From: an uncultured Verrucomicrobiae bacterium
GTDB lineage: Bacteria > Verrucomicrobiota > Verrucomicrobiia > Limisphaerales > JAFGQR01
Direction of reading: 5' to 3'
Length of the DNA stretch: 64,000 nucleotides
Assembly (NCBI GenBank): GCA_963788655.1
Contig: CAWBHS010000087.1
Span: 64,001 to 128,000 of the forward strand
Part shown: positions 4,137 to 57,203 of the stretch, piece by piece
Position numbering within the stretch: the first letter of the stretch is position 1
Layout: every line of letters starts with the position of its first letter
Notes under the pieces: model-generated
Seen by the model: only the letters and a program-made list of their open reading frames with translations
Database searches by the model: none
Told to the model about the DNA's origin: nothing
Translations under genes and position numbers: made by a program

Positions 4137-5765
4137 TTATTCCCGAAAAGCATAGCAGTGTTTTTTCGTTCTGACGTAGAGCGCGTCGTCCACGATCGCC
4201 GGCGTGGCCAGCACTTCTTCGCCAAGTTTATTGCGGGCCAGGACTTCCAGCGTGTCGCCGCTGCGGATCACCACGGCCATGCCCTGCTGCGAAATGACGC
4301 AGATCTTCCCGCCGTCGGCGACCGGGGAAGCGTAGTAGTTCCCCAATGCTCCCAGGCGTTCTTCCCGATAAAACACATGCCCGGTTCTCGCCTCCAGGCA
4401 GGTGAGCATGCCGCCATTTTTCACCAGGTAAACGCGACCATCGTAATTGAGCGGGGAAGGCACGTAGGGCAACCCGCGAGTCTGCTTCCAGACCACATGA
4501 GTTTGCGTGACGTTGCCATGACCGTCGGGCCGCACCGCAAACGCGACGTTTTGGGATTGTTGGAAAATCGCCGCAATCGACTCCCATTCGACGCGAGAGA
4601 TCGCTTCGTCCTTGTCGGCATCAATGTATTGAAAATGCTGGCGCGCCGGACCGGACGTGGCTTCGCCGCGGGCAATCTTGTCGTCATGGTTGGCATCCGA
4701 TTGAGCGAGCAAATTGTCATAGGACGGCAACCTTCCCGGTCCCGACCCGTACGTCCAGCCAGCGGCATAAACCAGGTCACCGTCCGTTATCGGAGAGGAC
4801 ACCATTTCGTTGGGCAAGCCGCTGACGCTCCAGCGTTCGCTTCCATCCTTTAAGTTGTAGGCCATGAGCCGCAACGTGCCAGTGGCGATGACCATCTCGG
4901 GAGCGGCGGGCGGGTAGGCCAGGGGAGTGGAGAAGCTCCGACGGAACGCGGTGCGATCAGCTTTCCAGACGGTGTTGCCCGTGTGCTTGTCCACCGCCAG
5001 CAAATAGGAGCCCACGTCCTGGTCGCACAACAACAATGCCAAACCGCCGGCCAGGATCGGGGATGTGCCGGCGCCGTGCTGCGTGATAGGGATCGGGAGT
5101 GGCTTACGCCAAAGTTCCTGGCCCTCGAGCTGGTAAGCGGCCAAGCCATACGAGCCAAAATAGACGCAAACGATTTGCCCGTCGGTGGCTGGAGTGGAAT
5201 TGGCCAGGCTGCCCAAGCCGGAGTTGGATTCGGTTTTCTCAGGACTCAGTTCCCGTTGCCACAAAATCGCGCCGGTGCGCCGGTCCAGGCAAAGCGTCAG
5301 CAATTTGCCAGCAGCGGAACCGGTCAGGAAAATACGGTTCTCCCATACACACGGCGAGCCGTTGCCGGAAGGCAGGACCGTTTTCCAAACGACGTTCGAA
5401 TCGGGGCCGAACTGCGTGGGGAAACGGCTGTTATCAGCGATACCGGAACCGTGTGGCCCGCGAAATTGCGGCCACCAGGCCGGGGCGCTCCCAGCGACGT
5501 TTTGGCCAAACGCAATCAACAGAAGGACGCACAGACAATGTCCAACTGCAGAGGAAATGGCGCGTCGGAATGCCCACCGCCTGGAGGTTTCGAAGCCACT
5601 GTAGCCGCCGACGTGAGGCGGCGGAATCGAGGCGCCATGCCCGTGCTCCGCCTTCTCACGTCGGCGGCCACCACTACGCGATATTTTAGGCGGGGCGGGA
5701 AACGTCCGGGCGAGCATGTGCGCGGAATTCTTATGCACAAATGTCGTTCGCTTTTCGCCCCTCAT
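4137..5765 (-). CDS. PQQ-like beta-propeller (BamB-like) repeat protein with an EF-hand insertion
   Basis: WPQFRGPHGSG N-terminus, repeated SP/TP...W propeller motifs, DANHDDKI and DADKDEAISRVEW EF-hand-like loops. Start is 5765 or 5717. Confidence 0.85.
   Translation of the reverse strand: MRGEKRTTFVHKNSAHMLARTFPAPPKISRSGGRRREKAEHGHGASIPPPHVGGYSGFETSRRWAFRRAISSAVGHCLCVLLLIAFGQNVAGSAPAWWPQFRGPHGSGIADNSRFPTQFGPDSNVVWKTVLPSGNGSPCVWENRIFLTGSAAGKLLTLCLDRRTGAILWQRELSPEKTESNSGLGSLANSTPATDGQIVCVYFGSYGLAAYQLEGQELWRKPLPIPITQHGAGTSPILAGGLALLLCDQDVGSYLLAVDKHTGNTVWKADRTAFRRSFSTPLAYPPAAPEMVIATGTLRLMAYNLKDGSERWSVSGLPNEMVSSPITDGDLVYAAGWTYGSGPGRLPSYDNLLAQSDANHDDKIARGEATSGPARQHFQYIDADKDEAISRVEWESIAAIFQQSQNVAFAVRPDGHGNVTQTHVVWKQTRGLPYVPSPLNYDGRVYLVKNGGMLTCLEARTGHVFYREERLGALGNYYASPVADGGKICVISQQGMAVVIRSGDTLEVLARNKLGEEVLATPAIVDDALYVRTKKHCYAFRE
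5601..5671. repeat. Family A GTAG-type REP doublet (inverted pair)
   Basis: gtagccgccgacgtgaggcggc ... cttctcacgtcggcggccac; the same core occurs at 9171, 25.3k, 42.4k, 47.2k and 57.2k. Confidence 0.85.
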
Positions 5766-13453: not shown

Positions 13454-13620
13454 GCCCAATGCATGGCAAGGGAATGGAGGCAAGGGAATCAGAACTGTGG
13501 ATTAACCTTTTGGCCCTGCAAAACCCCGTTAGCCCGAGGAGTCCGGCTACGTGAGCTAATCTTGAAAAAACGTTAGTGAACAGACGACGTCTCTCACTTT
13601 GCCCAACCGTCCGCAACATT

Positions 13621-13664
13621 TCGCATCCGGCATCCGGCATCGGGCATCAGGCATCCAGTATCTG
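13621..13664. repeat. GCATCCG-type tandem repeat
   Basis: gcatccggcatccggcatcgggcatcaggcatccagtatc; the complement occurs at 29471 and 55641. Confidence 0.7.
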
Positions 13665-13678
13665 TAATCCCTTCCGCC

Positions 13679-15458: not shown

Positions 15459-15720
15459 CAAAATCCGAAGGCCGAAATCCGAGATCCGAAAGAGGCCCCT
15501 TAGCTTATATCTGAACCAGAGCGCACCATGCAGCATTGGGAAAGCTACCATTCACCGCAAAGACACGAAGGGCGCCAAGGTTGTGAAGGCAGAACCATTG
15601 CGCCCTTCCTGTCTTTGCGGTGAAAAGGAGCCTACGATGTGCAGGGGCCGGACCCCCTTGGATTTCAGGTCTTCGGTCTTAGGGCCTCTTTCGGATCTGG
15701 ATTTCGGTCTGCGGATTTTC
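15459..15720. repeat. Nested inverted repeat: outer heptamer arms, inner nonamer-type hairpin
   Basis: Outer aaatccgaaggccgaaatccgagatccgaaagaggcccct / agggcctctttcggatctggatttcggtctgcggattt; inner ttcaccgcaaagacacgaagggcgc / gcgcccttcctgtctttgcggtgaa. Confidence 0.8.
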
Positions 15721-18294: not shown

Positions 18295-18576
18295 CTAAAA
18301 GTACCGCTCCACAATCCAACGGGCCAGACTGGTGCCCAGCAGCGTGCCAAACGCGCCGGTAGCGGCGAGTCCGAACCACGACAGGAGGTATCCCAGCACC
18401 AGGTAACGGTGGGCCGCATTCCATTCGTCGCCGGCCTGCCGCCGGGTGCGGGCGTGTTCTTGCCAGGCGAGCATCGCCGCCGGCAAACCTAACAACGGCA
18501 CCAGACTCAGCACCCCGAGGGCAAAACAGCGGAGCGAGCCTTCAATCAAACGGATGCGGTGCTGAGGTCCACTCAT
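18295..18576 (-). CDS. Small membrane protein (DUF4190-like)
   Basis: CFALGVLSLVPLLG...YLVLGYLLSWFG; last gene of the pilin operon. Confidence 0.6.
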   Translation of the reverse strand: MSGPQHRIRLIEGSLRCFALGVLSLVPLLGLPAAMLAWQEHARTRRQAGDEWNAAHRYLVLGYLLSWFGLAATGAFGTLLGTSLARWIVERYF

Positions 18577-18591
18577 TTTGGTTCGGTTGCG

Positions 18592-18858
18592 TTACCGGGC
18601 CAACCCGTAAACCGCGAAAGACGTTTCCGGCATTTGATAGCCAGGGTTGCTTCCGACTGCGTTCGCGACGGCATTGGTGGTCGCAAATTTTCGGAGCTGC
18701 TTTTGTTCGATCAGCTTCAATTCCTGTTTCAACGAGTAAAGAATCCGGTTGTTGACGACGATGAACACACCCATTACCGCCAACAGCATGAAAACAATCA
18801 ATACCGCCGAACCGGCTTGGCGGCGGGGGGAATGGGGAGATGCGATTTGTAGTTTCAT
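18592..18858 (-). CDS. Minor pilin/PilX-GspK-like protein
   Basis: MKLQIASPHSPRRQAG|SAVLIVFMLLAVMG, lacking E5; ATGA overlap with the upstream gene. Confidence 0.6.
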   Translation of the reverse strand: MKLQIASPHSPRRQAGSAVLIVFMLLAVMGVFIVVNNRILYSLKQELKLIEQKQLRKFATTNAVANAVGSNPGYQMPETSFAVYGLAR

Positions 18859-19562
18859 GGTTTTGCTGACGTTGCGGGCACGGCCAGGAAGCTGAAGACC
18901 GGTTTCACCCGTGCGACTTTTTGGGCGCGCTGCAATTGGACTTCCCAACGCCAGGCAGTCACGTGGTGGCGGGAGTCTTTGACCATTTCCGATTTGGCGA
19001 CGCGCGTCAGGAATTCCACCCAGGGACGCTGCTCCCCGGCGCTCCGCCAAACCGTGTCGTCAAGCAGCACATAAGCGATTTCGTTATCCGTGTGCGGGAC
19101 GTGAAGTTCCGGACCGTTTGGCGTCTGGACCCATCGCATCGGCCCAGTCGCCTGGCGAATATCCTCACGCCACAGTTCGCCGGCTTCCATTGTGCGGGTG
19201 ATGTCTTCAGCGTTTCGTTCGAGGTAGGTATTTTGTTTATAGACTCGATAAAAGGCGGCGAAGGCCAGCCCCAGCAGGACCAACAACGCCGCGATATAGA
19301 CCAGGCATTCGATCAGTAAAAAACCGCGAGCCGTTCTGGTTCTGCCAGGCCGTAACGATTCAGTAGGACTGGCGTCCCGCCTGTCTCGAATGGAAGTAAA
19401 CCAACCAATTGCATTAGGTCGCCGAGACTTTTGCAGCGTCACCAAAAAGTGAGGCAAGCCCTGGGCTTTTCGGGACAGGCGAGACGCTTGTCCTACCTGA
19501 CCCAGTCGTCCCGTCCCTGGTCCTCGCACCGAATCGTTACGACCAGGAGAGTTCCTCCTCAT
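18855..19562 (-). CDS. Prepilin-type (PulJ/PilW-like) protein with an 80-aa leader containing a MITE
   Basis: RTARG|FLLIECLVYIAALLVLLGLA; ATG 19562 overlaps the upstream TGA. Confidence 0.8.
   Translation of the reverse strand: MRRNSPGRNDSVRGPGTGRLGQVGQASRLSRKAQGLPHFLVTLQKSRRPNAIGWFTSIRDRRDASPTESLRPGRTRTARGFLLIECLVYIAALLVLLGLAFAAFYRVYKQNTYLERNAEDITRTMEAGELWREDIRQATGPMRWVQTPNGPELHVPHTDNEIAYVLLDDTVWRSAGEQRPWVEFLTRVAKSEMVKDSRHHVTAWRWEVQLQRAQKVARVKPVFSFLAVPATSAKP
19350..19542. mobile_element. MITE/REPIN-like element (family F) inside the prepilin leader
   Basis: TIRs CCGTAACGATTC / GAATCGTTACGA (11 of 12 match), flanking CCAGG direct repeats 198 bp apart, and an inner 134-bp GTAGGAC...GTCCTAC inverted pair; homolog at 36032-36165. 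Confidence 0.85.
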
Positions 19563-19993
19563 CGGATCCTCCATTCCCGTTGGACGCCGCGGCCCTTGCC
19601 TTTTTGCGCCGGACGCCACTCCAAGCGGACGAGCTGTTTGGTGCGCGTCAACACCAACTGGCCGGGCGGCAGATTGGTCGCCGCGGCGCTCGTGGTGTGA
19701 TACACGTGTTCCCCATCGTCAAATGCCTGCCATTCGCCGGCGGCCAGGATTTCCATCTCGCCATCGACAATCTCCATGGCCACCGCGTCGTAGTAGTACG
19801 CCCGGCACATTTTCATTTCCTGGAAAAAGATGAACGACATCGGAATCAGCGCCAGGGCGATGATGCCCATGGCAATGATGAGTTCGGTAATCAAGAGCCC
19901 GCGTTGCCGGAGGTTGCAACGGCGGCTTTGGCGACTGAAGTCGAGAATGTTACTGGTCTTCGGGACGATCATGGATGGAATTGAAATGTGCAT
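19559..19993 (-). CDS. Prepilin-type (PilV/GspI-like) protein
   Basis: RQRG|LLITELIIAMGIIALALI; TAATG overlap with the upstream gene. Confidence 0.8.
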   Translation of the reverse strand: MHISIPSMIVPKTSNILDFSRQSRRCNLRQRGLLITELIIAMGIIALALIPMSFIFFQEMKMCRAYYYDAVAMEIVDGEMEILAAGEWQAFDDGEHVYHTTSAAATNLPPGQLVLTRTKQLVRLEWRPAQKGKGRGVQREWRIR

Positions 19994-21189
19994 TACCACA
20001 AAACAGCTTGTTGGAGCAGGTCCACAAAGGTGCCGAACAGGCCCAGGGCCATGAAGCCAACCAGAATCCCGTTGAACACGATTAATCCGGTCGTGAGCAG
20101 TTGCGTGGCCGCCTGTTCCTGCTGGAAGGCTTTGGCTTCGAGGTTTTCCAACCAACCGGACAAAGCGGCCAGGAATCCGGTTTGGCCGTGACGGGCATTG
20201 CGCACCCGCCATTGGAGTTCCTGCGCACGGTCCAGAGACTGGAGGGCCTCGAGCAACGAAGCACCTTCCTCCAGGCGGCGCGTGGCGGTGGCGGCTTGCT
20301 GGATCATCACCCGGTTGTCCGTACATTCGGCAGCCAGGCCGATGGCGGTGCTTTCCGGCACCCCGGCATCCAGCAACGTGGCCAGCATGGCGGCGAAGTC
20401 CCGCTGCAATCGTTTTCGTCGCCACGGCATGCGGATCGCGCCCCAATCCATGATCGGTTGGAGGAAATCGTCGCCCCAGTGCTTCAACCGGGGCCCGATC
20501 GCAAACACGAAGATCAGCAACCACAGGAGCAATGTAAGGCCGATCTCGATCGCGGCCCCCCAAGTGGTCCCGCGGACGACAAAATCCAGGAAAGTAGTTT
20601 CTTCCAAACCCATTTCGTGAGCGATCATCAGGAACTGCGGAAAGATGAAGATCTTCAGGAAAATGAACATGATCGGCAATACCGGCATCACAAAAACCAG
20701 CAGTAATAACAAGTAATTGAGTGCGCTGCGGGTTTGGGAAACCCCGTCGTGGAGCAAGCGCCGGCAGGCCGGCAGGATCTTGCGCAAGTCGCCCAATTGC
20801 GCGCCGGCTTTCAACATGGCAACGATCTGCGGCGGCAGGAGGGATGGCACGCGAACCAGGGCTTCCTCGAACCGCAGTCCGCTTTCAAGGTGCGCCGCCA
20901 GTAAATGGAATCGCGGGCCCACACTCCGCTCGCGGCTGAGCGAAATGCTGACAATCGTTTGCTCGGGCGTGGTTCCGGACTTGAGCCCGATTTCCAACAG
21001 GTCCAACAACAGTCGCGCCCGTTCTTTGCGCCGCAGCGGCAAACTGACGACGTAAAAAACGCCGTAGGGCAACGCCAGCACAAACAGCGAGACGATCAAC
21101 AGGCAAACTGCCAGCAGCCAAAACGCCGCACTGTTGAAGGCTGTCTCGAAGAAGTAGTCCATGTTCGCCAAGTAATCGTTATTGGCCAA
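19993..21189 (-). CDS. Type II secretion system F family protein
   Basis: Two GspF-type domains (LESGLRFEEAL...AMLKAG; FAAMLATLLDAGVP). Start uncertain. Confidence 0.85.
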   Translation of the reverse strand: MANNDYLANMDYFFETAFNSAAFWLLAVCLLIVSLFVLALPYGVFYVVSLPLRRKERARLLLDLLEIGLKSGTTPEQTIVSISLSRERSVGPRFHLLAAHLESGLRFEEALVRVPSLLPPQIVAMLKAGAQLGDLRKILPACRRLLHDGVSQTRSALNYLLLLLVFVMPVLPIMFIFLKIFIFPQFLMIAHEMGLEETTFLDFVVRGTTWGAAIEIGLTLLLWLLIFVFAIGPRLKHWGDDFLQPIMDWGAIRMPWRRKRLQRDFAAMLATLLDAGVPESTAIGLAAECTDNRVMIQQAATATRRLEEGASLLEALQSLDRAQELQWRVRNARHGQTGFLAALSGWLENLEAKAFQQEQAATQLLTTGLIVFNGILVGFMALGLFGTFVDLLQQAVLW

Positions 21190-21237
21190 TCCAGTTCATA
21201 GTCCAGCAACGCCGGTGATGAAAAAGTTCGTTCCCAT

Positions 21238-22248
21238 TTAAAACATTGGCATCAGCAGCATATTCAGCGTCTGCACGAAACCCATAACGAACGGCAGCAT
21301 CTGCGCGACGATCAACAGCCCCAGCGCGAGGATCGATACGGGCAAGGCCGCGTACAACGCCATTTCGATATGATGCATGGCCCGGCGATAATAAATCTCC
21401 GCGGCGTTGCGCAGTCCGCCGACCCAGTCTTCGCCCGCGCTGGCCACCAGCCACACAAACAGTGGCGGAACGACCTTGCCGCCGGCGGCCAGATCCGGGA
21501 ACCGCGCTTGCCCGGCCGCCAACCGTTCCTGCCAGCGGGCCAGTTCCGGCTCCAACGGTTGTTTGGCTTCGAGGTGCCGCAATAGTTCAAGTGCCTCCCG
21601 GGGTTGGCATCCCTGGCTTAGCAGTAACGCAAAAGCCGCTGCGAATTGAGAAAGGCTGGCTTCCCGAAAGGCCGGGATTCTCCACCGCAACCATCGCCGG
21701 CACGGAGGCACCAACAAGGCCACGAGCAGTCCGACGGTGATTAAGGCAATCAGGGACACCGGCACCCATTGGGCCAGGGGAAACATCAGTTCACTGACGC
21801 TGGATGAGCCTCCCGCATTGAACAGATCGCTCATTACGCCCGGCTCGCCATAGTACAACGCCGTGAACAGGCTCGCCAGGGCGATGGACAGGATTAATGA
21901 AGTCACAAAGACAATCACCGGATAGACCATCAAACCTTTGAGCCGGGTCCAGACCGAATTGACCTGCTGATAGTAATCGCCCAGGAGTAGCAGGACGCCC
22001 GGCAGGTTGTTGCTCGCGATGCCCACGCGCAGCATGGCCACGTAAAACTCCGGCAGCCGCCGCGCCCCCAGCGCCTGTTCCGCCGGCGTGCCTTGAGCCA
22101 GATCGGCTTCGAGTTTTTCCAACTCGGTGCGTAGCGTGCCATGCCGCATGGTCGCGCAGAGCTGTTTCAACGCACCCTCCAGCGGCAGCCCGGACTTGAG
22201 CATGCCGGCCAACTGCTGATTCACAAACGCCAGTTCGTCATATTTCAT
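21238..22248 (-). CDS. Second type II secretion system F family protein
   Basis: ELAFVNQQLAGMLKSGLPLEGAL...FYVAMLRVG...LMVYP. Confidence 0.85.
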   Translation of the reverse strand: MKYDELAFVNQQLAGMLKSGLPLEGALKQLCATMRHGTLRTELEKLEADLAQGTPAEQALGARRLPEFYVAMLRVGIASNNLPGVLLLLGDYYQQVNSVWTRLKGLMVYPVIVFVTSLILSIALASLFTALYYGEPGVMSDLFNAGGSSSVSELMFPLAQWVPVSLIALITVGLLVALLVPPCRRWLRWRIPAFREASLSQFAAAFALLLSQGCQPREALELLRHLEAKQPLEPELARWQERLAAGQARFPDLAAGGKVVPPLFVWLVASAGEDWVGGLRNAAEIYYRRAMHHIEMALYAALPVSILALGLLIVAQMLPFVMGFVQTLNMLLMPMF

Positions 22249-23330
22249 TCGCCCAATACCCTTTCGCATTCCCGCAGATCCGTTACTCCGTCCCGTACCA
22301 TTTCCTGCGCCGCCGTTTTCAAGGTGTGCGTCGGTTGAATGGCCGGTGGCCCATGAACGCGCATTTGGCCCCGGCTGGTTTCATCGGCGCGAAACCATTC
22401 CACCAAGGGCAGGCGGCCCCGGTAGCCGGTTTTCAAACAGGTATCGCAGCCCACGCCGGCACAGTCCGGACACAACCGCCGCACCAATCGCTGGTTCAAA
22501 ATCAATTCCAACGCCGAGACAACTGCATGCGCGTCGGGACACAGTACCAACAGCCGTTCCAACACGCCCCGGCAGGATCCGGCGTGCAGCGTGGTAATGA
22601 CCAAGTGCCCCGTCGAAGCCGCGCGCACAACAATGCCTGCCGTTTCTTCATCGCGGATTTCGCCTATGATCAGCACTTGCGGATCCTGACGCAACAAATG
22701 CCGCGCGGCTTTCGCGAACGTCAAGCCGCGCGCTTCGTTGACTTCGGTCTGCATCGTGCCCGGGATGATCTGCTCCACCGGGTCTTCGACCGTGATAATA
22801 TGCTTTCCGCCCAATGCGGTCATGCAGGTTAGACAGGCGTGGATGGTAGTCGTTTTGCCGCTGCCCGCCGGTCCAGTCAACAGGATCAGGCCGGACGGCC
22901 GTCGCAGACACTGCTCCAGTTCGGCGCAGCTTCTGCCGGCAATTGAAGGTCGGACAGCGATTGGGCCGCCGTTTCGTGAAACAGTCGCAGCACAATTTTC
23001 TCGCCCGTGACCGTGGGATACGTGGACACGCGCAAATCATGATGCGTTCCGAGGTCCACCCGGTCAATGCGCCCGTCCTGCGGCAGCGACTCCTGGTAGG
23101 TTTTCAGTCGGGCCAGATATTTAATGCGGCCAAAGACTCGTTCCGCCAGATGCTTCCGGAATCGGTTGGGTGGGTGTCATGACGCCATCAAGGCGAAAGG
23201 CGACTTCGGCAATCTTGCCGACCATCTGCAAATGCACGTCGCTGGCGCCCGCGCGTTCCGCGGTGCGCACGAGTATCTCGAGATGTTCCGGGGCCGAGGC
23301 TGACGGTGATTTTGATGACTTGGCGTTCAT
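22245..23330 (-). CDS. Short GspE/PulE-family ATPase (frameshifted)
   Basis: ASDVHL..FRLDG, PQDG, GEKIVLRL, GPAGSGKTTT, TVEDPVE, LRQDP..IIGEIRD, TGHLVITTLH and CxxC..CxxC across frames. Confidence 0.9.
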
Positions 23331-23544
23331 GGTTGTGCGCGATGTAAGTGTCAATCAACATGTCGGGCGGGTCGCGAAAGGACAAGCCAAAGAATGCGCT
23401 TTGCGCTTGTGCCACCGGATTCTGGAGGCGCATGTTGAGGTCAATGAAACCAGTCTTCATTTGGCCTGCCAGTGACATAATCCAGACCTCGGGCGGGAAA
23501 GCCATCAGGCGTCATTCAAACGTCGTGAACCAGTCGTGCTGGCG

Positions 23545-23748
23545 AAAGCGGGAGCAAGCTCCACGCACTCCAAACGCTGCGCGAGGTTTGACCGGGTTGG
23601 TTGGCAAGGTCGCGCCAGCGTTTGGAGTGCGTCCAGCTTGCCGGCGCTTTCGCATGCAGGACGGTCGTGTGTGGTTGCAGGCCACGGCTTTTAGCCTCGG
23701 GCTGAAGAAGTCTCATGAATGCGGCAAAGCACCGCACGCACTCCATGA
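23545..23748. repeat. Family B REP cluster (3 copies)
   Basis: aaagcgggagcaagctccacgcactccaaacgct; cgccagcgtttggagtgcgtccagcttgccggcgcttt; a degenerate copy at about 23720. Confidence 0.85.
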
Positions 23749-25201
23749 TACGGAAGTTCTAAAGCGCAGGTCGGCTTGCCTCTTCCTCATCGTTGCCAAT
23801 TGTCTTTGGGGCACCTTTGAACCTTCAGCAACCGTCGCGGCGCCCGCCGCTTCCGAAACCGTCTGGAGCGCTGGCCCGCACTTGTTCCTCGACGCGTCAA
23901 TGGTTGTGGCTTCGTCAAACTTGCAGCGATCATTTTGCCCGCCCTCCCGGTTGCCCGATCCTGTGGTCACCGGCTACGAAGATGGCAATTTCCAACCTTA
24001 CGTGACCGTGATTCAAGACGCCGCAACCGGCCGGTTTCGGATGTGGTACAACACGCCGCGCACACCACACAACGCCGGCGAATCAAGCCTCGCCCACCTC
24101 GAATCCAAGGATGGCATACACTGGCTGCGTCCCGCCCGGGTGCTCCGCGATCCGGCACCAATCCAATTTGGCGCCAGCATCATTGACGACGGTCCCAATG
24201 CCAAACCGCCCAAGCAACGATTCAAGTTCGCCTGGTGGAAGTCCGGCGGTCTGCAGATCGCCACCTCGCCCGATGGCCTCGCTTGGACCCCGCTCGTCTC
24301 CGGGGTGGTGCTGCCCGCCAATCACGACATCACCAGCATTCATTGGGATCCCTTGCGTCGTCGTTATCTGACGTTGTTGTCGTTTGTTTTGAATGACGGT
24401 CCCTGGCCTGGCCGACGGATTCCTTATGAGAGTGTCAGCAGCGACTTGGTTCATTGGCGCAAGCCGTGGCCGATTATCGCGCCGGAACCGAATGTTCCCC
24501 GCGAAAAAGGCCGGACTGAGTTCTACAGCATGAGCGCGGTGTTGGCTCGCGGCAATCTGCTGGTCGCCATGGTAAAAGTTTTGCGCGACGACCTGAACTG
24601 CGAACCGGATAAGACTGCCGCCGAACTCCATGATCCCGGTCGGCCACACGCGGGCATTGGCTACACCGTGGTTGCCTGGAGCCGGGACGGCGAGCATTGG
24701 GAGCGTGGCACGGAACCATTCCTGGATCGCAATCCGCAATCGGGAACGTGGGACCGTGCCATGGCCTGGATCGACGATCAGGTGTTAGTGGACGACTTCA
24801 CTTATTTCTACTACGGCGGTTACCGCTGGGGCCACAAGGCCGACCGTTTCACCGGGCGTCAAATTGGCTTCGCCCAAATGCGGCGTGACCGTTACTTGGC
24901 TTATGTCGCCGGGGAGGAAAGCGGTTGGTTGCGCACCCAACCGGCGCGAATACACCAAGCGCTTCAAATGACGGTGAATGCCCAAGTCGATCCCGAGCAG
25001 GGCGAACTCCGGGTGCGGGTGGTCGAAGCCGGTGGCCGCGCTTTGGTGGGATTCGATTGGGAGGATTGCCGCCCTGTCCGCGGCGACCGGATCAACCATC
25101 CGATTGCCTGGAAGGGGCGCAACGCCACTTTGGAAGGCAAGCCGGTCCGATTCGAATTTCGCCTCAGCCACGGAAAGATGTTCGCCTTCGAGCTTCAGTG
25201 A
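23654..25201 (+). CDS. Exported five-bladed beta-propeller glycoside-hydrolase-like protein
   Basis: HLFLD, FRMWY, Asp-box-like SKDGIHW/SPDGLAW/SSDLVHW/SRDGEHW, and a C-terminal beta-sandwich (VRFEFRL...FAF). Start uncertain. Confidence 0.7.
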   Translation: MQDGRVWLQATAFSLGLKKSHECGKAPHALHDTEVLKRRSACLFLIVANCLWGTFEPSATVAAPAASETVWSAGPHLFLDASMVVASSNLQRSFCPPSRLPDPVVTGYEDGNFQPYVTVIQDAATGRFRMWYNTPRTPHNAGESSLAHLESKDGIHWLRPARVLRDPAPIQFGASIIDDGPNAKPPKQRFKFAWWKSGGLQIATSPDGLAWTPLVSGVVLPANHDITSIHWDPLRRRYLTLLSFVLNDGPWPGRRIPYESVSSDLVHWRKPWPIIAPEPNVPREKGRTEFYSMSAVLARGNLLVAMVKVLRDDLNCEPDKTAAELHDPGRPHAGIGYTVVAWSRDGEHWERGTEPFLDRNPQSGTWDRAMAWIDDQVLVDDFTYFYYGGYRWGHKADRFTGRQIGFAQMRRDRYLAYVAGEESGWLRTQPARIHQALQMTVNAQVDPEQGELRVRVVEAGGRALVGFDWEDCRPVRGDRINHPIAWKGRNATLEGKPVRFEFRLSHGKMFAFELQ

Positions 25202-25267
25202 TCATTGCCTACACGAAAAGTGGTGGCAAAGCATGTTGGCTCGCTTTCGTCGTCCAATCATCATTTA

Positions 25268-25399
25268 GCGCCTCTTTTAAAACTCCAGCCGGTCCGTAGC
25301 AACCGACGTGAGGAGGCGCATTTTTCCTCGGAAAACCGCGATGCATCCGAGATGAATGAGCCTCCTTACGTCGGCTGCTACCATTTTTCAAACAGGCTT
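25268..25399 (-). mobile_element. About 130-bp MITE: family A REP doublet inside (GA)GCCTGTTT(G/T)AAAA TIRs
   Basis: The reverse complement aligns end to end with 47168-47299. Confidence 0.85.
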
Positions 25400-25602
25400 T
25401 TAGGGGCTGACTTTAGCGAAGTGAGATTGTTTCTGAGGTCGGGTTTTCGCGAGCTTCGCATACTTTGCGGTTAACTCACCGAGTCATTTCTTCAGCAAAG
25501 CAATCCGGTTCCGAAACCTTAGCTGCCTTCGGATTCTGGCCTTCGGTTTTCTACTCCGCTTTGTTGTCGCGCAAATTAGCCGAGGCCCTAAGATAGCGTC
25601 CG

Positions 25603-26241
25603 ATGAACCAACGTCGGCGCGCCATTTTGATTGCGGGAATTGTCATCGGGGCCATCTGGCTGATGGCCTGGATTGGGCATCGCCTTGCGCTCAATTCCCG
25701 GATGACCGCGGAGAAGGTACGCCAGTACGTGCATTCGGTGGACTTCGGGAGGTTGTCCGGAAAGGAACGCGCCCGCGCGTTGACCGAGCTGGCCGACAAG
25801 TTGAATGCCTTGCCGTACGACGAACGACGGCGGGTGCGCATGCGGCGCGAATGGGAAGGCTGGTTTCCCCTGATGACCGAAAGCGAAAAGGATCAATTCA
25901 TCGAAGCCACTTTTCCTGCGGGCATCAAACAGATGATCACGGCGTTCGAGCGCCTGCCCGAGGATCGGCGCCGTCGGGCTATTGACGAGTCACTGCGTCG
26001 GTTGCGCGAGGCCCAAGCGCAGGACGCCGAGCAGGCTGGACAGCCACCCGAGGCTGGTGGGCGAACCAAAGAGCCGCCGCCGATCAGCCCGGAACTGGAA
26101 CAGAAGATCCGCACGTTGGGGCTGAAGACATTTTTTGCCGAGAGTTCGGCCCAAACGAAGGCGGAGGTGGCGCCGCTCCTCGAGGAAATCCAGCGGATCA
26201 TCGAGTCGGGTGGTCGGATTCATCGGAGGCCGTTTAAGTGA
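25603..26241 (+). CDS. Hypothetical membrane-anchored helical protein
   Basis: N-terminal TM segment and charged helical body; GTGA-coupled to the following prepilin; TAAGAT 8 nt upstream of ATG. Confidence 0.75.
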
Positions 26242-27068
26242 GAGCCGAACAAACATTCCGGCATCGCGAAACGGCACGTGCCCCGTCGCGCCAGCGTTTG
26301 GAGTGCGTCCGGCTTGCCGGCGCTTGCGAATCGGAGCGCGCCGTTATCGAAGAATCTGCCGGGCGATTTGCTGACCGACGCCAAACCCGTAACGCAGAGT
26401 TGCACTCGGCTGACTCTGCTCGGCCAGTCTCACCACGAAAGCGGGAGCAAGCTCCGCGCACTCCAGACGCTGCGCGAGCTGCGAATGCCAACGATGCTGC
26501 GCTCACACGCAAAAGTTCGAACCCCACCGTGCCCGGCTTCACCCTGATTGAGTTGCTCCTGGTGATTGGGATTATTGCCATCCTGGCCGCGTTGTTGTTG
26601 CCCGTCATCAGCCGGGTCAAGGAACAGGGGCGGGCTACGGCGTGCTTGAGCAACTTGCACCAGGTGGGCATCGCGCTGCAATTGTATGTGCAGGACAATG
26701 ATAACCGGCTGCCGGTGATGTACGACGCCTTGCTGAGCACCAACGCGCCGGCCACCACCAACCGCGCGACCATCGATTTGGTGCTCACCAATTACCTGGG
26801 TGCCCCCGGCATTCTGCGCTGCCCGTCCGACGACAAACAGTTGTTCGCGCAAACCGGCTCGAGCTACGCCTGGAACGTGCTGGTGAATGGACAGAATGCG
26901 GATCACTTGCACGTGATGGACCTGGATTTTGATCCGCATAACATCCCCTTGGTGTTCGACAAGGAAGGCTTCCACCGCGCCCGCGGCCAAGGGAAAGAGC
27001 TGAATTATCTTTACGCCGACGGACGCATCCAAAACCTGCTGGTCCTCGAAGGAACCCGCCGGCCATGA
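26238..27068 (+). CDS. Prepilin-type N-methylation / H-X9-DG (DUF1559-like) protein with a 100-aa leader containing a REP doublet
   Basis: [42 protein letters not shown]...NYLYADG. Confidence 0.9.
26286..26477. repeat. Family B REP doublet within the prepilin leader
   Basis: Same two arms and order as the reverse complement of intergenic 55748-55894. Confidence 0.85.
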
Positions 27069-27997
27069 TTGAATTGCGTCAAGTCACCAAGCGTTTTGGC
27101 CAGCGGTTGGCCGTGGACAACCTGTCGGTGCATGTGCCGACGGGGGAAATCTATGGATTACTCGGCCACAACGGTGCCGGCAAAAGTACGGCCATCGGCA
27201 TGATGCTGGGCCAGGTCTGGCCGACGCAGGGCGAAGTGCGGCTGTGCGGTTTTGGCGTCACGACGCAGCGGCAGCGCGCCTTGCAGCAGGTGGGTGCCAT
27301 CTTTGAAACCCCGGCGTTTTACGATTACCTCAGCGGTTGGCGGAACCTCGAAATTCTCAGCACTTACACCGCCCGGACGCCGCCGCAGCGGATTCGTGAA
27401 GTCATCGAGTGGGTGGGACTGACGGGACGGGCGGAGTCCAAGGTCAAGACCTATTCGCACGGCATGCGGGCGCGGTTGGCCATTGCGCAAGCCTTGCTGC
27501 CGGAGCCCAAACTGTTGATCCTGGACGAACCGGGCGATGGACTTGATCCCGAGGGTATCCATGAAATGCGGCAAACGATTCTACGGTTGCACCGCGAACT
27601 GGGGCTGACGCTCCTGCTGTCTTCGCATTTGTTGGTGGAAGTGGAACAATTGTGTACGCGCATTGCCGTGTTGAACCAGGGCCGGTTGGTGTTCGAAGGA
27701 ACCCTGGCACAGGCGCAGCAGACGCAGCATTGGGTGCGGCTCGTTACCAACGACTTTGCCGCGGCGAGCGCGCAGTTGCGGCAGGCGGGTTTGATCGAAG
27801 CGGCACGAGACGACCAACGGGTGCGGTTGGCGGCTGGCGTGGGCGTCGATCAACTGGTGCGGCAGTTGGTGGAATGGGACTTTTCGATTTTTGAAGTGGC
27901 ACCGGAGAAGCACACGCTCGAGGATTTTTACCTGGACTTGATGAAGCAACCTTCCACCGCTTCCAAACGCGACATGCCGGCAGGTGTGCAAACGTGA
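27065..27997 (+). CDS. ABC transporter ATP-binding protein (ABC-2 exporter type)
   Basis: [27 protein letters not shown]. Confidence 0.95.
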
Positions 27998-28030
27998 ATC
28001 CAAACTCAACCATGAAGAAAGGCGTATCCC

Positions 28031-28604
28031 ATGCCCACAGAACCCAGATTTGAAGCCAACGAAAACCATATCGTGCCGTCCCTGCGTGAAGTCGCACAGG
28101 CCAAAGGCATGAATTTCGCCGAAGTTGGTGGTCGCCATCCCAGTTGAGAACAATCGCTGGGTGGGCACCGACCGCCACCACGTGCTGGTGAGCGATGCCG
28201 CCGAGGTGGTGGAATGGCGCGTCGAAACGCTGAGCGAATTGTGTCGCGGCGACCATCAACCGCCGCCCCACCTGGACCGGTTTCCGCCGGAATATGTACC
28301 GCTCTTCTTTTACCTCGAGTCGCAAATCATCACGTTCTGCAAGGCCTTCGGCGATAAAAGCGATCAGGAATTCGAGGAAATCTATGGTAGTTTGCGGCGG
28401 CGTCCGGAAGGCCGCAGCCTGGGGCCATTGCACGATTTTCTCTGGCAGGTTTGCGCGGTGATGCTGGCCACCCGCATCGTCAGCCAGGCGGAGTTCGAAG
28501 GTGTGATTGGGGCTTTGTTGCGGTCGGCGAAACGCTGGGCCGTGCGCCCAATTTCGCGCAACTACATGAATTACCTGCACCAGACGGTGGAACGTGGTTT
28601 ATGA
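28031..28604 (+). CDS. Hypothetical protein (probable frameshift near 28122)
   Basis: MPTEPRFEANENHIVPSLREV... joins ORF 28125-28604; ATGA-coupled to the permease. Confidence 0.6.
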
Positions 28605-29464
28605 CGGGCGCGGAGACATCGAACGGGCGGCCGCGGATCGGGGTCATGTTCTGGCTCCAATTGCGCAACGAGTTGTGGAAGCTCTTCGGCAAGAAGCGCA
28701 CTTACATCGGCTTCGGGATGTTCCTCGCGGCGCAACTGACCATCGTGCTCATCTTTTATTACAATGACAGCGCGCGGCGGCATTTGACGGCAGCCGGCGA
28801 AGAGTTCTTTTCCAGTCTCACCTGCGCCACGGTGATGATCCTGCCACTGGCCTTTATCCTCCTGCCGCTTTACGTGGCGTTGGTGGGCGGCGACCTGGTG
28901 GCCAAGGAAGCGGAGGACGGCACCTTGCGAATGATCCTCGCCCGACCCGTCTCACGCGTGCGGTTGCTGCTGTTGAAATGGTTCGCCGGGGTGATCTTTT
29001 CCGCCGGGCTGGTCGTGGCGCTGGGTGGCCTCGCGCTCTTGTTTGCGTCGATCTGGTTTCCGTGGAGCGATATGTATGTGCTGATTCCGGGCGAAATGAT
29101 TTCCGCGTTCGATCCGGCTACCGGCTGGCAGCGTTACGTGAGCGCGCACTTGTTCATGATCATCAAGGCGGCCACGATCATTTCGCTGGCCTTCATGTTT
29201 TCCTGCTTCAACGTCAAACCCGCGGCGGCCACCATTCTGGCACTCTCATTTATTTTTGCCGACCACATCCTGCGGAGCATTCCCTATTTCGCAGACCTCA
29301 AACATTGGTTCATCACCTACCATCTCAACGTCTGGCAATACCTGCTGGCCCAGCCCATCCCGTGGTGGCGCGTGGGCGAATCGATGTGCATTCTTTTGGG
29401 ATTTAACGTGACCTTCCTGGTCATCGGCTGCACCGCGTTTCACGTGCGGGACATTAAGTCGTGA
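28601..29464 (+). CDS. ABC-2 transporter permease
   Basis: LRNELWKLF, GGDLVAKEAEDGTLRMILARPVSR..LLLLK, FHVRDI. Confidence 0.9.
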   Translation: MTGAETSNGRPRIGVMFWLQLRNELWKLFGKKRTYIGFGMFLAAQLTIVLIFYYNDSARRHLTAAGEEFFSSLTCATVMILPLAFILLPLYVALVGGDLVAKEAEDGTLRMILARPVSRVRLLLLKWFAGVIFSAGLVVALGGLALLFASIWFPWSDMYVLIPGEMISAFDPATGWQRYVSAHLFMIIKAATIISLAFMFSCFNVKPAAATILALSFIFADHILRSIPYFADLKHWFITYHLNVWQYLLAQPIPWWRVGESMCILLGFNVTFLVIGCTAFHVRDIKS

Positions 29465-30073
29465 GGGAGGGGATGCCGGATACCAGATGCCAGATACCAG
29501 ATGCCGGATTGGGAAGGGTAGCTCCCAATGTCCGGTAGGATTCGGCGGAATATCGTCCGACCAGGCTGGTGCCGCCCTCTTGGTGGCGTTGCGGTTCATC
29601 AGGCCATTGGCCCGCCGCCATTACGCTTGAAATCTATTCGTGTCGCGTGGATTACCGTTCGCTGATCCGCAGTGCTATCGCGGGTCGTACTTTCAATTAA
29701 GGATCTTCACCGAGCCGCCGACGGACCCCGTGCCATACGATTTGCCATCGATCTCGAGGGTGGGTTGGACATTGGGGATTGGCCATTCTCTGGTCCTTGG
29801 ATATTGGTCATTGGTCATTTCCCTGTCGCTGCTTTGCGGCATTTGTCATCGGCAAGGCAAGGGATGTTGTTACTTTGGCAAAATAGGTGAGGGCACTTCG
29901 GGGACGGAAAACCTAGTTTGGAACCACGATGACCGGTGGAGTTTTCCGGGTGTTGTTTTCTGCTCCCGCGGAGGGTTCGAAACGAACCAACTCAGCCCGA
30001 GACGGGCATTCGGCCCGGCAATCATCGTGATGCTGGAAGGCATCGTTCGCAGTGGTTGACTGATTTTTACTGA

Positions 30074-33782
<3,709 letters not shown>

Positions 33783-33792
33783 TGATTAGACC

Positions 33793-34797
33793 ATGGACCT
33801 GACAACTACTTATCTAGGGCTCAAGTTACGCAACCCGCTGGTGCTTTCCGCATCGCCGCTGTCCGAAAATATGGACAACCTCAAGCGGGCCGAAGAAGCC
33901 GGCGCCGCCGCGGTGGTGCTGCAATCCTTGTTCGAGGAACAACTCAAGTTTGAGAGCGAGGAATTGGATTATCACCTGTCGCACGGCACGGAAAGCTTCG
34001 CCGAGGCGCTCAGTTATTTTCCGGAACCCACCGAGTATCACCTGGGACCTGAGGCTTATCTCGAACACATCGCCAAGGCGAAAGCCACGGTGCAAATTCC
34101 CGTTATTGCCAGCCTCAACGGAGCGTCCGCGGGCGGTTGGACGGAGTATGCCCGGAAGATCGAACAAGCCGGCGCCGACGCCCTGGAACTGAACATTTAT
34201 TACATCCCCACGGACTTGAATTTGTCCGCCGCCGAAGTCGAGCAAACCTACCTCGACATTCTCAAGGCGGTAAAATCGGCGGTCACCATCCCCGTGGCGG
34301 TGAAGTTGAGTCCGTTCTTCAGCAGCATGGGCAACATGGCCAAGCGCCTGGATGAAGCCGGCGCCAACGGCTTGGTTCTGTTCAACCGGTTTTACCAACC
34401 GGACATCAATCTCGAGACGCTCGAAATCGAGCACTCCATTTTGTTGAGCACCCCGCAAGCCCGCCGGTTGCCGTTGCGTTGGATCGCCATGCTTCATGGA
34501 CGCATCCAGGCGGACATGGCGGCCACCAGTGGAATTCACAATGCCCAGGACGTGCTCAAGGTGCTCATGGCAGGAGCCAGCGCCACGATGCTCTGTTCAG
34601 TTATCTACAAACATGGCGTGGAGTACCCGAAAGTCATCGAACGCGAACTGAGCAAATGGATGGAGGAGCACGAGTATGAATCGGTGCAACAACTCCAGGG
34701 CAGCTTGAGTCAGAAGAATTGTCCGGACCCGAGCGCCTTCGAGCGCGCGCAGTACATGCGAATCCTTACCACTTGGCGACCGGCCCAAGTGGTTTGA
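33793..34797 (+). CDS. Dihydroorotate dehydrogenase-like flavoprotein
   Basis: MDLTTTYLGLKLRNP, SLFEEQ, ADALELNIY, PVAVKLSP, LFNRFYQPD, FERAQY. Confidence 0.92.
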   Translation: MDLTTTYLGLKLRNPLVLSASPLSENMDNLKRAEEAGAAAVVLQSLFEEQLKFESEELDYHLSHGTESFAEALSYFPEPTEYHLGPEAYLEHIAKAKATVQIPVIASLNGASAGGWTEYARKIEQAGADALELNIYYIPTDLNLSAAEVEQTYLDILKAVKSAVTIPVAVKLSPFFSSMGNMAKRLDEAGANGLVLFNRFYQPDINLETLEIEHSILLSTPQARRLPLRWIAMLHGRIQADMAATSGIHNAQDVLKVLMAGASATMLCSVIYKHGVEYPKVIERELSKWMEEHEYESVQQLQGSLSQKNCPDPSAFERAQYMRILTTWRPAQVV

Positions 34798-35142
34798 GCA
34801 GCTTTCAATGCCGGGCAGGTCTGGGAATTCGCGTGATGAGTGCGACGCAGGCTTGCCCGGCTCGATCCTGGACACGGCAAGCTCCGCTTGAAATCCTGGC
34901 AGGCTTTAGCCGCTGCCGAAGATCATTGAAAGCACAAGGAGACGGCATTACTGGAGACGCATCGAAATAAGCGGAACTATTTTGGTACGTCCCCAGTCGA
35001 TTTTGGGTGCGACAATTTCCGTAAAGCCTTTCACAAATTGGGCAAAGCCATCGGCCCCGCGGGATGTTTTATTCCCTTACCTAACTGAGTGAGTTTAACC
35101 AAGTCATTCATCGTGAACCAAACCGTCGAAACAGAGCGGGAA

Positions 35143-36018
35143 ATGAAGAAGTCGGACTCCGGCGCCGCCCCGGAAAACCGCGAGACGGCCTTTGGCTTTC
35201 CGCGCAACTTCCTCGATAACCACTTCGTATATGTTGTGGTTTCGCCGCGCGCCCGTGGATTATCCATCGGCATCAACATGAATCCCGACAAACGCTGCGA
35301 TTTCAGTTGCGTTTATTGTGAAGTCAATCGGGACGCACCGGGCCGCGATCCCCAATTGGACGTGACGCTCATGGAATCCGAACTGGAGCACACGCTCAAA
35401 CGTGCCTACCAGGGCAAATTGCAGGATCTGCCGCTTTACCGGAATCTTCCCGTGGACCTGCTCGAGTTGCGTCACGTGGCGCTCAGCGGCGACGGCGAAC
35501 CGACGCTCTGTCCCCATTTTGCCGAGGCGGTCCATGCCGTGGTGCATGTGCGCGCCCGCGGCCAGTTTCCCTTCTTCAAAATGGTGTTGATCACCAATTG
35601 CACCTGGCTGGATTTGCCGGCGGTGCAGCAGGGACTGAAGTCATTTACGCGGCAGGACGAAGTCTGGTGCAAGCTCGATGCCGGCACGCAGGAGTATATG
35701 AACAAGGTAAACCGGCCCGGGGTGACCTTGGAAAAAATCCTGAGTAACATCCTCCTGCTCGGTCGGCAACGGTCACTGGTCATCCAAAGCCTCTTCCAAT
35801 CGCACGATGGTGAAGAACCACCCGATTACGAAATCCAGCAATACGCCTTGCGGTTGAAAGAACTGAAAGACCAAGGCGCGGATATTTCATTGGTTCAGAT
35901 TTACTCCGCCACTCGCCCGGTGTCGCACGCCCTCTGCGATCATTTGCCGCTCAAGACCCTGTCCCGAATTGCCCAGACCGTTCGCACCGTCGCCGGCCTG
36001 AACGCGGAAGTGTTTTAG
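35143..36018 (+). CDS. Radical SAM protein
   Basis: SPRARGLSIGINMNPDKRCDFSCVYC, SGDGEPT, LITN, KLDAGT. Start could be 35113. Confidence 0.9.
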   Translation: MKKSDSGAAPENRETAFGFPRNFLDNHFVYVVVSPRARGLSIGINMNPDKRCDFSCVYCEVNRDAPGRDPQLDVTLMESELEHTLKRAYQGKLQDLPLYRNLPVDLLELRHVALSGDGEPTLCPHFAEAVHAVVHVRARGQFPFFKMVLITNCTWLDLPAVQQGLKSFTRQDEVWCKLDAGTQEYMNKVNRPGVTLEKILSNILLLGRQRSLVIQSLFQSHDGEEPPDYEIQQYALRLKELKDQGADISLVQIYSATRPVSHALCDHLPLKTLSRIAQTVRTVAGLNAEVF

Positions 36019-36165
36019 GCGTGACCATTCAGTAGGACAGACGTCCCGCCGGTCTCGAACGGCCGCCAGCCAGGGATTTGGGTTACAGCGGCCAAACGTT
36101 CTCAACGTTACCAAACAGTGACGAAAGCCCTCGGCTATTCGAGACCGGCGAGACGCCTGTCCTAC
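36016..36165. mobile_element. Intergenic copy of the family F element
   Basis: gtaggacagacgtcccgccggtctcgaa ... ttcgagaccggcgagacgcctgtcctac, 134 bp, with a spacer similar to 19363-19496. Confidence 0.8.
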
Positions 36166-36208
36166 AACTCGGAACCGCTTCATTGATACTCCGGCCGCTG
36201 GATACAGC

Positions 36209-37387
36209 CTACAGATTGCGGTCGATCATCTCCAGCGTAAGAGCCACGTAGCAGGTGACGAGCACGGGATCTTTTTCCCACCACCGGCCATTTTCGTTGA
36301 CCCACGAGCCGTCCTTCTGCTGGAGATTGAGCAACCGCATGGCCAGGTCTTTGCGCCAGTCGATGGTGCGGCCATCGGCCAGCTTCAAGTCCTTAACCCC
36401 GTAGGCGGTCAAGGCTTTGGTCATGGTGTGAAAATAGTAGAACAATCCTTGCATTCCCATTCCGGGATTTTCTGCGAGCGTATAATTCTGCCGCAGCCAA
36501 TCGAACACTGCCTGCACGCGCGGGTCGTCCGGTTTGAATTGGGCGTAAATGTAGCTCAACAATCCCGCGTAACTGATGCTGCCATAGGACCGCAACGCCA
36601 CGCGCCCGGTGACAGCGTTCGTGACTTCTCCGGCTTTGCTGTTGCCGGGGTAATAGACGAAGCCGCCTTTGTTCGCGGGATCGTCCGAAGCCCATTTCTC
36701 CGGGTTGTAGCCGGGTAGGTTTTGGCAGCGTTGCAGGAAATGGATGGCGGCCGCCCAATTGAGGTCCTTGGCTTCCGCCGGATTTTGATCGGCCACCAGG
36801 CGGCGGCTGTAATAGAGCGCCTCGAGTGCTTGCAGCGTGTTGCTCATGTCGGAGTGTTCGTAGGAACTCCCATAGCCGACCCCGCCATCGAAGGGCGTGT
36901 CAATCTTGCCCTGCTCGCCGAAATCCCGTTGCAGGCCCACCAGGAATTGCCGCGCCCGGCGCAGGATGGAATCATACTTGTCATTTCCCGTGGCCAGCAA
37001 CGCCATCATGCTGAGCGCGGTGTTGTAGGTCACCAGTTGGCCGCGGTGAATGCTGCCATCCGGCTGCACACTGGCCAGCACGTAGGCGAATCCCCGTTGC
37101 AACCACGGCGGTTCCTCCCGCTTGAACTTTTGGTCCGGCGCCCCTTCGAATGCCATCAGCGCCAGACTGGTCACTGCCGGATGGTCCGGCGTGGACCACC
37201 AGCCGTTCGTGTTTTGATTGGCCTGAAGCCAGGCCAGTCCCCGGTCAACCGCATGTTGGAGTTCGTTCTTGAACGAAACATCATGCGTGAACACGGGAGG
37301 GGAGGGTTGGGTTTCGGCGGCGGTGCCAGCCAGTGAAGCAACACCGGCAAGCAGGCAGGCGCCGGCAATTAGTCGAAAGGTGTTCAT
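36209..37387 (-). CDS. Exported prenyltransferase/squalene-oxidase-repeat (terpene cyclase-like) protein
   Basis: Signal peptide; QW-like repeats (WLQANQNTNGWW, VQPDGS, QQKDGSW); GGFVY. Confidence 0.85.
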   Translation of the reverse strand: MNTFRLIAGACLLAGVASLAGTAAETQPSPPVFTHDVSFKNELQHAVDRGLAWLQANQNTNGWWSTPDHPAVTSLALMAFEGAPDQKFKREEPPWLQRGFAYVLASVQPDGSIHRGQLVTYNTALSMMALLATGNDKYDSILRRARQFLVGLQRDFGEQGKIDTPFDGGVGYGSSYEHSDMSNTLQALEALYYSRRLVADQNPAEAKDLNWAAAIHFLQRCQNLPGYNPEKWASDDPANKGGFVYYPGNSKAGEVTNAVTGRVALRSYGSISYAGLLSYIYAQFKPDDPRVQAVFDWLRQNYTLAENPGMGMQGLFYYFHTMTKALTAYGVKDLKLADGRTIDWRKDLAMRLLNLQQKDGSWVNENGRWWEKDPVLVTCYVALTLEMIDRNL

Positions 37388-42347: not shown

Positions 42348-42477
42348 GCCTGTTTGAATAGTAGCAGCCGACGTAAGGAGGCTCTGACTTCTAAGTTCCG
42401 GCGCCAGCGAAAATCCACGCAGTGTGAGCCTCTTTACGTCGGCTGCTACAACCGGAATGGATGTTTTCAAACAGGCT
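42348..42477 (+). mobile_element. About 130-bp MITE (family A doublet inside GCCTGTTTGAA TIRs)
   Basis: gcctgtttgaata gtagcagccgacgtaaggaggctc ... gagcctctttacgtcggctgctac ... ttttcaaacaggc. Confidence 0.85.
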
Positions 42478-47148: not shown

Positions 47149-47167
47149 GGCGGTCGCGTTCGGTTTA

Positions 47168-47299
47168 GAGCCTGTTTGAAAAATGGTAGCAGCCGACGTA
47201 AGGAGGCTCATTCATTTCGGGCGTGGCACGGTTTTCCGAGGAAAAATGAGCCTCCTCACGTCGGCGGCTTCGGACCGGTTAGAGTTTTAAAACAGGCTG
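47168..47299 (+). mobile_element. About 130-bp MITE (family A doublet inside TIRs)
   Basis: gagcctgtttgaaaa ... ttttaaaacaggct; close copy of 25268-25399. Confidence 0.88.
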
Positions 47300-57196: not shown

Positions 57197-57203
57197 CGCC
57201 GCG

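Follow-up and report, generated by a model that had tools for sequence, protein, structure and literature searches.

A palindromic element with IS1380-type ends in a prepilin leader, and export leaders as a likely shelter for selfish DNA

About fifty exported proteins of an uncultured Verrucomicrobiae bacterium carry in-frame repeats in their export leaders, and these leaders are likely to shelter selfish DNA. One of them is a minor pseudopilin whose leader holds a 198-bp palindromic element, a MITE, within the window (the whole stretch of 64,000 nucleotides that was analysed, to which coordinates without a contig name refer). We consider it probable that the shelter is a passive one, i.e. that the insertion was tolerated in a leader that is discarded and was kept by purifying selection, the element likely surviving because the mature protein is unchanged.

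In this scenario, an IS1380-type transposase acting in trans, the putative mover, would have inserted a copy from an old subfamily whose length of 198 bp, together with a TCG that replaces a common in-frame TAG, would leave the frame open. Translation from a coupled ATG would add 66 residues to a long basic leader that stays cytoplasmic, and the A24 peptidase of the genome would cut at G|F, removing the element-derived residues. Insertion would be broad, with purifying selection leaving frame-preserving copies in the discarded parts of proteins.

The element and its host leader

The comparisons of ends, transposase and REP described below identify the unit as a MITE that combines IS1380-type ends with a REP core. 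Its parts, and a second copy, are as follows.

19350–19542, minus strand: MITE body, 193 bp (198 bp with one duplication), old subfamily, from 88 long genome copies and a tree of 71 bounded copies
19543–19547, minus strand: 5-bp target duplication, 5' copy
19345–19349, minus strand: 5-bp target duplication, 3' copy
19350–19366, plus strand: terminal inverted repeat of 17 bp, perfect, with the IS1380-family end pattern; its last four bases are the GTAG tag of the REP arm
19526–19542, minus strand: partner terminal inverted repeat, decayed (13/17)
19363–19390, plus strand: GTAG-tagged REP arm 1; the same REP flanks the RAYT-like gene on C75
19469–19496, minus strand: GTAG-tagged REP arm 2, inverted partner
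19438–19452, plus strand: 15-bp internal motif, 14/15 like positions 93–107 of IS1380 elements, weak alone
36015–36203, minus strand: second, decayed MITE copy between convergent genes (inner pair of 134 bp)

What an earlier, sequence-only reading had said of the anatomy of this unit stands, with refinements. The 5-bp direct repeats at 19345–19349 and 19543–19547 are identical, lie exactly 198 bp apart and are a variant of the usual CTNAG, and the GTAG-type inverted pair (arms of 28 nt each, together spanning 134 bp) does recur at 36032–36165. The terminal inverted repeats, given as 12 bp, are present but measure 17 bp. The element enters six codons past the start of the pseudopilin gene, in frame, and deletion of one unit restores a short leader, as had been proposed, with 14 residues against a homologue median of 15 (78 proteins, query excluded). 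The predicted RNA fold has an energy of −102.8 kcal/mol (z −4.99), which none of 200 shuffles equalled. The internal motif occurs in 74 of the 88 long copies, its score being matched by 3–7 of 60 shuffles. An Rfam search over 18500–37000 gave no significant family and one weak match elsewhere (E 0.76).

The element lies in an operon with the following features.

19560–19562, minus strand: pilin start codon ATG, overlapping the stop of the upstream pilin (ATGA coupling) at a position, −4, shared with orthologous loci
19323–19562, minus strand: prepilin leader, 80 residues by translation, 66 of them element-derived
18855–19322, minus strand: mature GspJ/EpsJ/XcpW-like minor pseudopilin, 155 aa, from the structure model, PDB fold matches and matches of its family to PF07963
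19559–19972, minus strand: upstream pseudopilin-like gene (G|LLITE), with a normal leader in this genome
18592–18858, minus strand: downstream small pseudopilin-like gene, without Glu5, with a coupled start
19993–22248, minus strand: two GspF/PilC platform genes (PF00482)
22245–23290, minus strand: GspE/PilB-type ATPase (PF00437), with two frameshifts in this assembly

The host gene combines a pilin fold with a T2SS/T4P gene context, as judged from the Pfam families of its neighbours, the structure model and the fold search, and it displays the features of a prepilin class III signal, namely a hydrophilic leader ending in Gly/Ala, Glu at +5 and 20–25 hydrophobic residues. In the model, the mature pseudopilin consists of a long helix (77–136, 60 residues) and a beta sheet, and the leader is predicted to be disordered (pLDDT about 50). 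The best 10 PDB matches are EpsI:EpsJ or XcpV:XcpW pseudopilin chains, with a Foldseek probability of 1.00 and E-values (0.002–0.016) above 0.001. PF07963 (N_methyl) matches 24 of the 63 members of the host pilin's family, the Pfam search giving no match for the host protein itself. The motif was found in 88 of 92 homologous proteins and a leader could be called in 79, all of which have G or A at −1 (79/79) and most E at +5 (68/79); homologue leaders range from 5 to 97 residues (median 15 without the query), and mature parts never exceed 164. A search for a promoter and a terminator returned 0 and 0. An A24 prepilin peptidase gene is present on C24 of the assembly (8.96 Mb, 86% complete). Prepilin leaders are described, in the part of the source drawn on here, as variable in length, staying in the cytoplasm and cut there after Gly or Ala (PMC10191384).

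Were the operon dead, the insertion could be unselected and in frame by luck. The ATPase gene with its two frameshifts, which is open in 5/5 relatives (362–1008 aa), would fit. Sequencing or assembly error is nevertheless the likelier cause, because the assembly has at least 160 frameshift-like joints and the tested operon proteins do not evolve faster. There is no excess of private changes in the C-terminal part of the ATPase, both platform proteins and two pilins, and the mature pilin shows no rate acceleration in comparison with a same-genus genome (private changes 17/19, 17/15, 15/10 and 8/15). The pattern recurs in a sister copy and in dozens of genes besides (see below), and we hold relaxed selection in a dead operon to be very unlikely. 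Elsewhere in the window, a gene at 30074–33785 (plus strand), which we take to be pyruvate:ferredoxin oxidoreductase-like, is broken into many frames, through assembly error or as a pseudogene.

The site is empty in most relatives. The 40 orthologous loci compared come from two sets (19 + 21) and are related by kinship, not independent; 19 of the 21 relatives' records in the second set are labelled Verrucomicrobiota or Limisphaerales. Two loci labelled Bifidobacteriaceae (L034 and L035) carry an operon like the verrucomicrobial ones and are probably mis-binned or mislabelled. From the upstream stop to the G codon there are at most 60 nt in 33/40 loci (median 36.5 nt; 35 nt in the empty site here), so it does not hold that all orthologues have the long leader, which would have told against the sequence-only reading. 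The other seven measure 98–421 nt, and in all of them the frame is open from a start close to the upstream stop; 3/7 contain recognisable palindromes of other families and 4/7 no recognised hairpin. L002, L029 and L041 have different repeats in this orthologous leader. The two neighbouring pilin leaders are also inflated in further loci, that of the upstream pilin exceeding 100 nt in 5/40 (one of these five is not open from the upstream stop). As a cross-species control, the uncleaved GspF starts show no large inflation (offsets −88 to +67 in 20 loci), although the alignments start too deep in the gene for a firm result. Heptamer-type tandem repeats are frequent in the window (13617–13670, 29471–29509, 55640–55667 and 15461–15493), and similar ones lengthen the pilin leaders of homologues P0012, P0038 and P0070.

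The ATG at 19562 overlaps the upstream TGA (19559–19561), as first read, and the G of G|FLLIE (codon 19323–19325) is reached after 80 codons; at 38 of the 40 loci the start has this −4 position (37 ATG, 1 GTG). GGAGGA precedes the pilin ATG, which is weak evidence, such a motif standing before only 13% of called ATG starts, and an in-frame ATG also occurs at 19574, four codons upstream. A start downstream of the element would leave the repeat untranslated, and no in-frame ATG, GTG or TTG was found between the element and G|F. If translation instead began at one of the element's own codons (GTG at 12, TTG at 36 or 40, GTG at 41) or at a non-standard codon, much of it would serve as untranslated spacer and the long leader would be misannotated. 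Other starts are in use, since 118 of 1,038 repeat-free signal-class genes lack an ATG within 50 codons, and N-terminal REPs have been flagged as probable misannotation by Di Nocera et al. (PMC3733652). However, nearly all orthologues start at the stop-overlapping ATG, the inner codons, placed within the hairpin or next to it, would leave a leader of about 40 residues or more, and the frame is open up to the ATG far above chance in the genome-wide test. Of all the readings weighed here, an inner start is the one to which we give least credence, and the 80-residue leader is presumably translated and cleaved as a whole.

Copies and parentage of the element

BLAST in the genome returned 271 matches, and because 88 of these are at least 100 bp long the element is not a product of chance. 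For 71 of the 88 (the bounded copies) the position of both ends could be determined; the unit measures 197 bp in 49 of them and 198 bp in 7. The 5-bp flanks are identical in 28 of the 71 and differ by one base in 22 more, the usual duplication being CTNAG (CTTAG 12 and CTAAG 7 among the 28 exact pairs). At the right end, 58/83 copies have an in-frame TAG and seven, including the pilin copy, TCG. Only three bounded copies are both a multiple of three in length and open in a frame that can be joined to a gene: two of 198 bp, both in pseudopilin leaders and in the same frame, and one of 189 bp that is intergenic. A further two bounded copies (195 and 198 bp) have an open frame on the opposite strand; they are extragenic or could not be placed.

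The sister 198-bp copy (C38:6316) sits in another pseudopilin leader, in the same orientation and frame, and aligns with the pilin copy without gaps, which led to the rejection of assembly error as the origin of the 198 bp. In the tree the two pair as sisters, with weak support (97/25), inside an old six-member clade (96/98). They differ at 14/9/15 sites by codon position, in 9 synonymous and 20 non-synonymous codons, and their leader peptides appear to be under no clear protein-level selection. A retention ratchet, in which leader copies would be older than intergenic ones, was not supported (median percentile 0.46, 60/64 intervals, p 0.25); despite the lack of a general age excess, the two pilin copies sit in an old subclade. 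No whole element was found in relatives, where only pieces of 27–39 bp occur, in 4/60 genomes. The window also has a second family of elements flanked by CTNAG (25265–25402, 42348–42477 and 47165–47303), in which different ends enclose another REP doublet, and no parent transposase for it was found in the genome.

A metagenome scan with the end motif pointed to the parent. It returned 119 stretches, of which 80 were examined and 34 carry one transposase, and the paired ends enclose either 1,635–1,678 bp or 155–278 bp. The transposase of the full-length elements scores 210.8 bits against NF033539 (cut-off 180) and matches PF13701, and the MITE's 17-bp ends and 5-bp CTNAG duplication are those of these 1.64–1.68-kb IS1380-transposase elements. 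An IS5-type parent with a 3-bp duplication was dropped, the full-length IS1380 elements having shown the 5-bp rule. The 86%-complete assembly yielded no intact cognate transposase: the MITE's ends are absent from all 12 DDE loci examined, the three intact PF13701 genes have other ends, and an IS relic at C58:68302 retains the last 27 codons and the right end. In L111, L123, L132, L151, L156, L158 and L177, metagenome MITEs of 155–278 bp combine these IS1380-type ends with other hairpins; three of the seven measure 195–199 bp.

As for the core, a RAYT-like Y1 transposase gene on C75 is flanked by the element's REP, and its protein scores above the cut-off of PF01797 and below that of the RAYT model NF047646 (72.8 versus 80). 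The RAYT-like ORF itself (L056:870–1688, minus strand) has REP-derived sequence at both its start and its end. Several Y1 transposase genes (C50:3810, C60:344808, C62:173255 and C49:85140) are preceded, at about 100–130 bp, by a 22-bp motif with 11 copies, which could be the end of a TIR-type element. Members of the IS1380 family such as ISEcp1 and ISPme1 are described, in the part of the source drawn on here, as capturing adjacent DNA via end misrecognition (PMC9330008), which is a possible route to hybrids of IS ends and REPs.

Leaders and other sites across the genome

The genome-wide comparison rests on a repeat library (2,660 intervals), gene calls and signal classes that are our own heuristics, the classes being set by a hydrophobicity rule; the signal-like class includes some uncleaved anchors and false positives. 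Among 54 prepilins, seven have a repeat in the leader and none in the mature part, and two more pseudopilins outside the 54 also carry a leader repeat. A repeat at most 150 nt away, with no intervening ATG but an in-frame ATG reached, was found in 6/52 pilin and 41/1,220 signal-like genes, as against 4/524 genes for polytopic membrane proteins and 19/4,040 other genes. The 41 signal-like extensions add 7–149 residues and belong to many repeat families.

Frames were compared, under a null that starts at the repeat, for genes that have a repeat no more than 150 nt away and no intervening ATG. In signal-like genes the frame runs open through the repeat in 53/56 cases, against 72/112 shifted frames (p 9e-6), and an ATG is reached in 43/56 against 17/112 (p 5e-15). 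Pilins reach an ATG in 6/7 against 3/14 (p 0.016), the open-frame test for pilins alone being not significant under the same null (7/7 against 10/14, p 0.25). The other genes are at chance in both respects (open 64/94 against 133/188; ATG reached 31/94 against 65/188). The check proposed with the sequence-only reading thus came out in its favour, genic copies being biased to frame-preserving leader positions.

Three further cases lie in the window.

26238–27068, plus strand: second prepilin, with a different REP doublet (26283–26331 and 26435–26484) in frame ahead of G|F; the start is ambiguous owing to a GTG two codons upstream of the G
56204–57373, minus strand: DctP lipoprotein, with a REP doublet (57200–57275) in frame before the signal h-region
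4137–5765, minus strand: PQQ-type beta-propeller protein, with a REP doublet (5599–5672) in frame before the signal h-region

Homologous loci have short signals in 2/2 cases for DctP, and most of 13 beta-propeller loci have a short signal with a Met just before the hydrophobic core, at least two being without a nearby Met. A protein without a Pfam match (23348–25201, plus strand) has a repeat (23542–23656) in frame before a signal-like segment. At C38:6300–9765 (L054), three successive pseudopilin genes each have a different in-frame leader repeat, one of them an array of several REP doublets, and at C3:1500–6100 (L055) there are prepilins with leaders of 106 and 169 residues, the latter holding 3–4 repeat families. 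At C72:232291 (minus strand), a REP doublet lengthens the N-terminal tail before an apparent uncleaved membrane anchor.

Leaders are not the only places where repeats are tolerated. Repeat density per kb is 2.5 in pilin leaders, 0.9 in signal n-regions and 0.007 inside genes, as against 0.74 in non-coding DNA before frame filtering, and 47 internal in-frame insertion sites exist in 40 genes, so that discarding is not required for tolerance. The proposal that a cleaved leader is a haven for a selfish palindrome is supported, with the qualification that leaders are the densest, not the sole, tolerated sites. It also understated the scope, since many repeat families and the n-regions of Sec-type and lipoprotein signals are involved, and it had not identified the parents.

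A passive filter does not explain everything. Neutral insertion followed by the frame filter predicts 0.5–1.2 leader repeats in pilins, where 7 are observed, and 7–19 in signals, where 41 are observed, and this excess is unexplained by such a filter. Leader repeats might then be favoured rather than just tolerated, if a hairpin or a basic leader tunes translation, stoichiometry or targeting, or if the elements aim at 5' ends. Leader and n-region densities above the non-coding one, the stability of the hairpin and leaders of up to 169 residues with several families would all agree with this. However, the insert is absent from 33/40 orthologues, inserts vary in family, length and structure, and there is no clear amino-acid constraint. 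The baseline is moreover lowered by a non-coding total that includes uncalled genes and constrained DNA, and half of the signal-class excess may be regional, because untranslated upstream repeats are about twice as frequent in that class (126/1220 versus 213/4040). We thus find it unlikely that leader repeats are favoured, and retain passive shelter as the working explanation.

Significance and comparison with known systems

The literature's warning about N-terminal repeats becomes a testable rule, according to which repeats stay in frame in N-termini that are removed and are at chance in others. On this rule, leaders of 57–169 residues should be processed by prepilin peptidase, and Sec-type signals should accommodate n-regions as long as about 150 residues. 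Because leaders of this length exceed the assumptions of gene callers and signal predictors, it is probable that exported proteins are mis-called in Verrucomicrobiota rich in repeats. An IS1380 parent (CTNAG target) can be named for a MITE in which IS ends and a REP doublet are fused in one element, and a transposition assay is therefore possible. More tentatively, and we regard this as rather doubtful, signal and prepilin peptidases might serve as protein-level excision of selfish DNA, with the export leaders of repeat-rich Verrucomicrobiota filled by mobile palindromes at or above intergenic density, through targeting or through a benefit of the added hairpin and basic tail, and the IS1380/RAYT hybrid might be movable by either enzyme; if excision by peptidases were true, leaders of 50–170 residues would be borne by dozens of exported proteins.

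In REPIN/RAYT systems, two inverted GTAG REPs lie about 80 nt apart. The element resembles them in this spacing and in the RAYT-like gene with the same flanking REP in the genome, but its doublet lies inside DDE-type ends with a target duplication, and the RAYT-like protein falls short of the model. With IS1380-family IS it shares the 17-bp ends and the 5-bp CTNAG duplication, but it has no transposase, its interior being swapped for the REP doublet.

In-frame palindromic repeats in genes are already known from Rickettsia palindromic elements (RPEs), according to the parts of PMC2229807 and PMC10969869 drawn on here. What is added is the parent IS, the contrast between 197 and 198 bp and between stop and open codon, and a class-by-class frame test with a negative control. 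The likeness to RPEs, which is one of description and not an assignment to RPE families, is that palindromes of 100–200 bp are fused in frame and are neutral or slightly harmful, the element working like an RPE if it is translated as proposed. RPE peptides, however, stay in mature, mostly metabolic proteins, whereas here repeats are densest in leaders, which are normally removed, and an IS parent and a 5-bp duplication have been identified.

Within the material of PMC3733652 covered, GTAG REPs in genes are most numerous in Opitutus terrae, and N-terminal cases are read as probably extragenic. The likeness lies in doublets inside ORFs of a verrucomicrobium, and the O. terrae GTAG-19 peptides look similar, by eye, to those of this REP; the rows covered are mostly internal, which is a difference, and the word 'pilin' occurs in none of the four supplementary files. 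Against the misannotation reading, start coupling and the frame test argue that N-terminal REPs are translated. In the literature covered, outside which subscription journals mostly fall, we found neither a description of repeats that cluster in prepilin leaders or signal n-regions nor one of REP doublets with IS1380 ends. A related case is the YPAL/RU-2 fusion YPO1552, where, in the portion of the source drawn on here, a MITE contributes to a predicted signal peptide (PMC2229807, Delihas). In YPO1552 the MITE would itself form part of the signal, whereas here the repeats lengthen an existing leader upstream of the hydrophobic core, and do so in dozens of genes.
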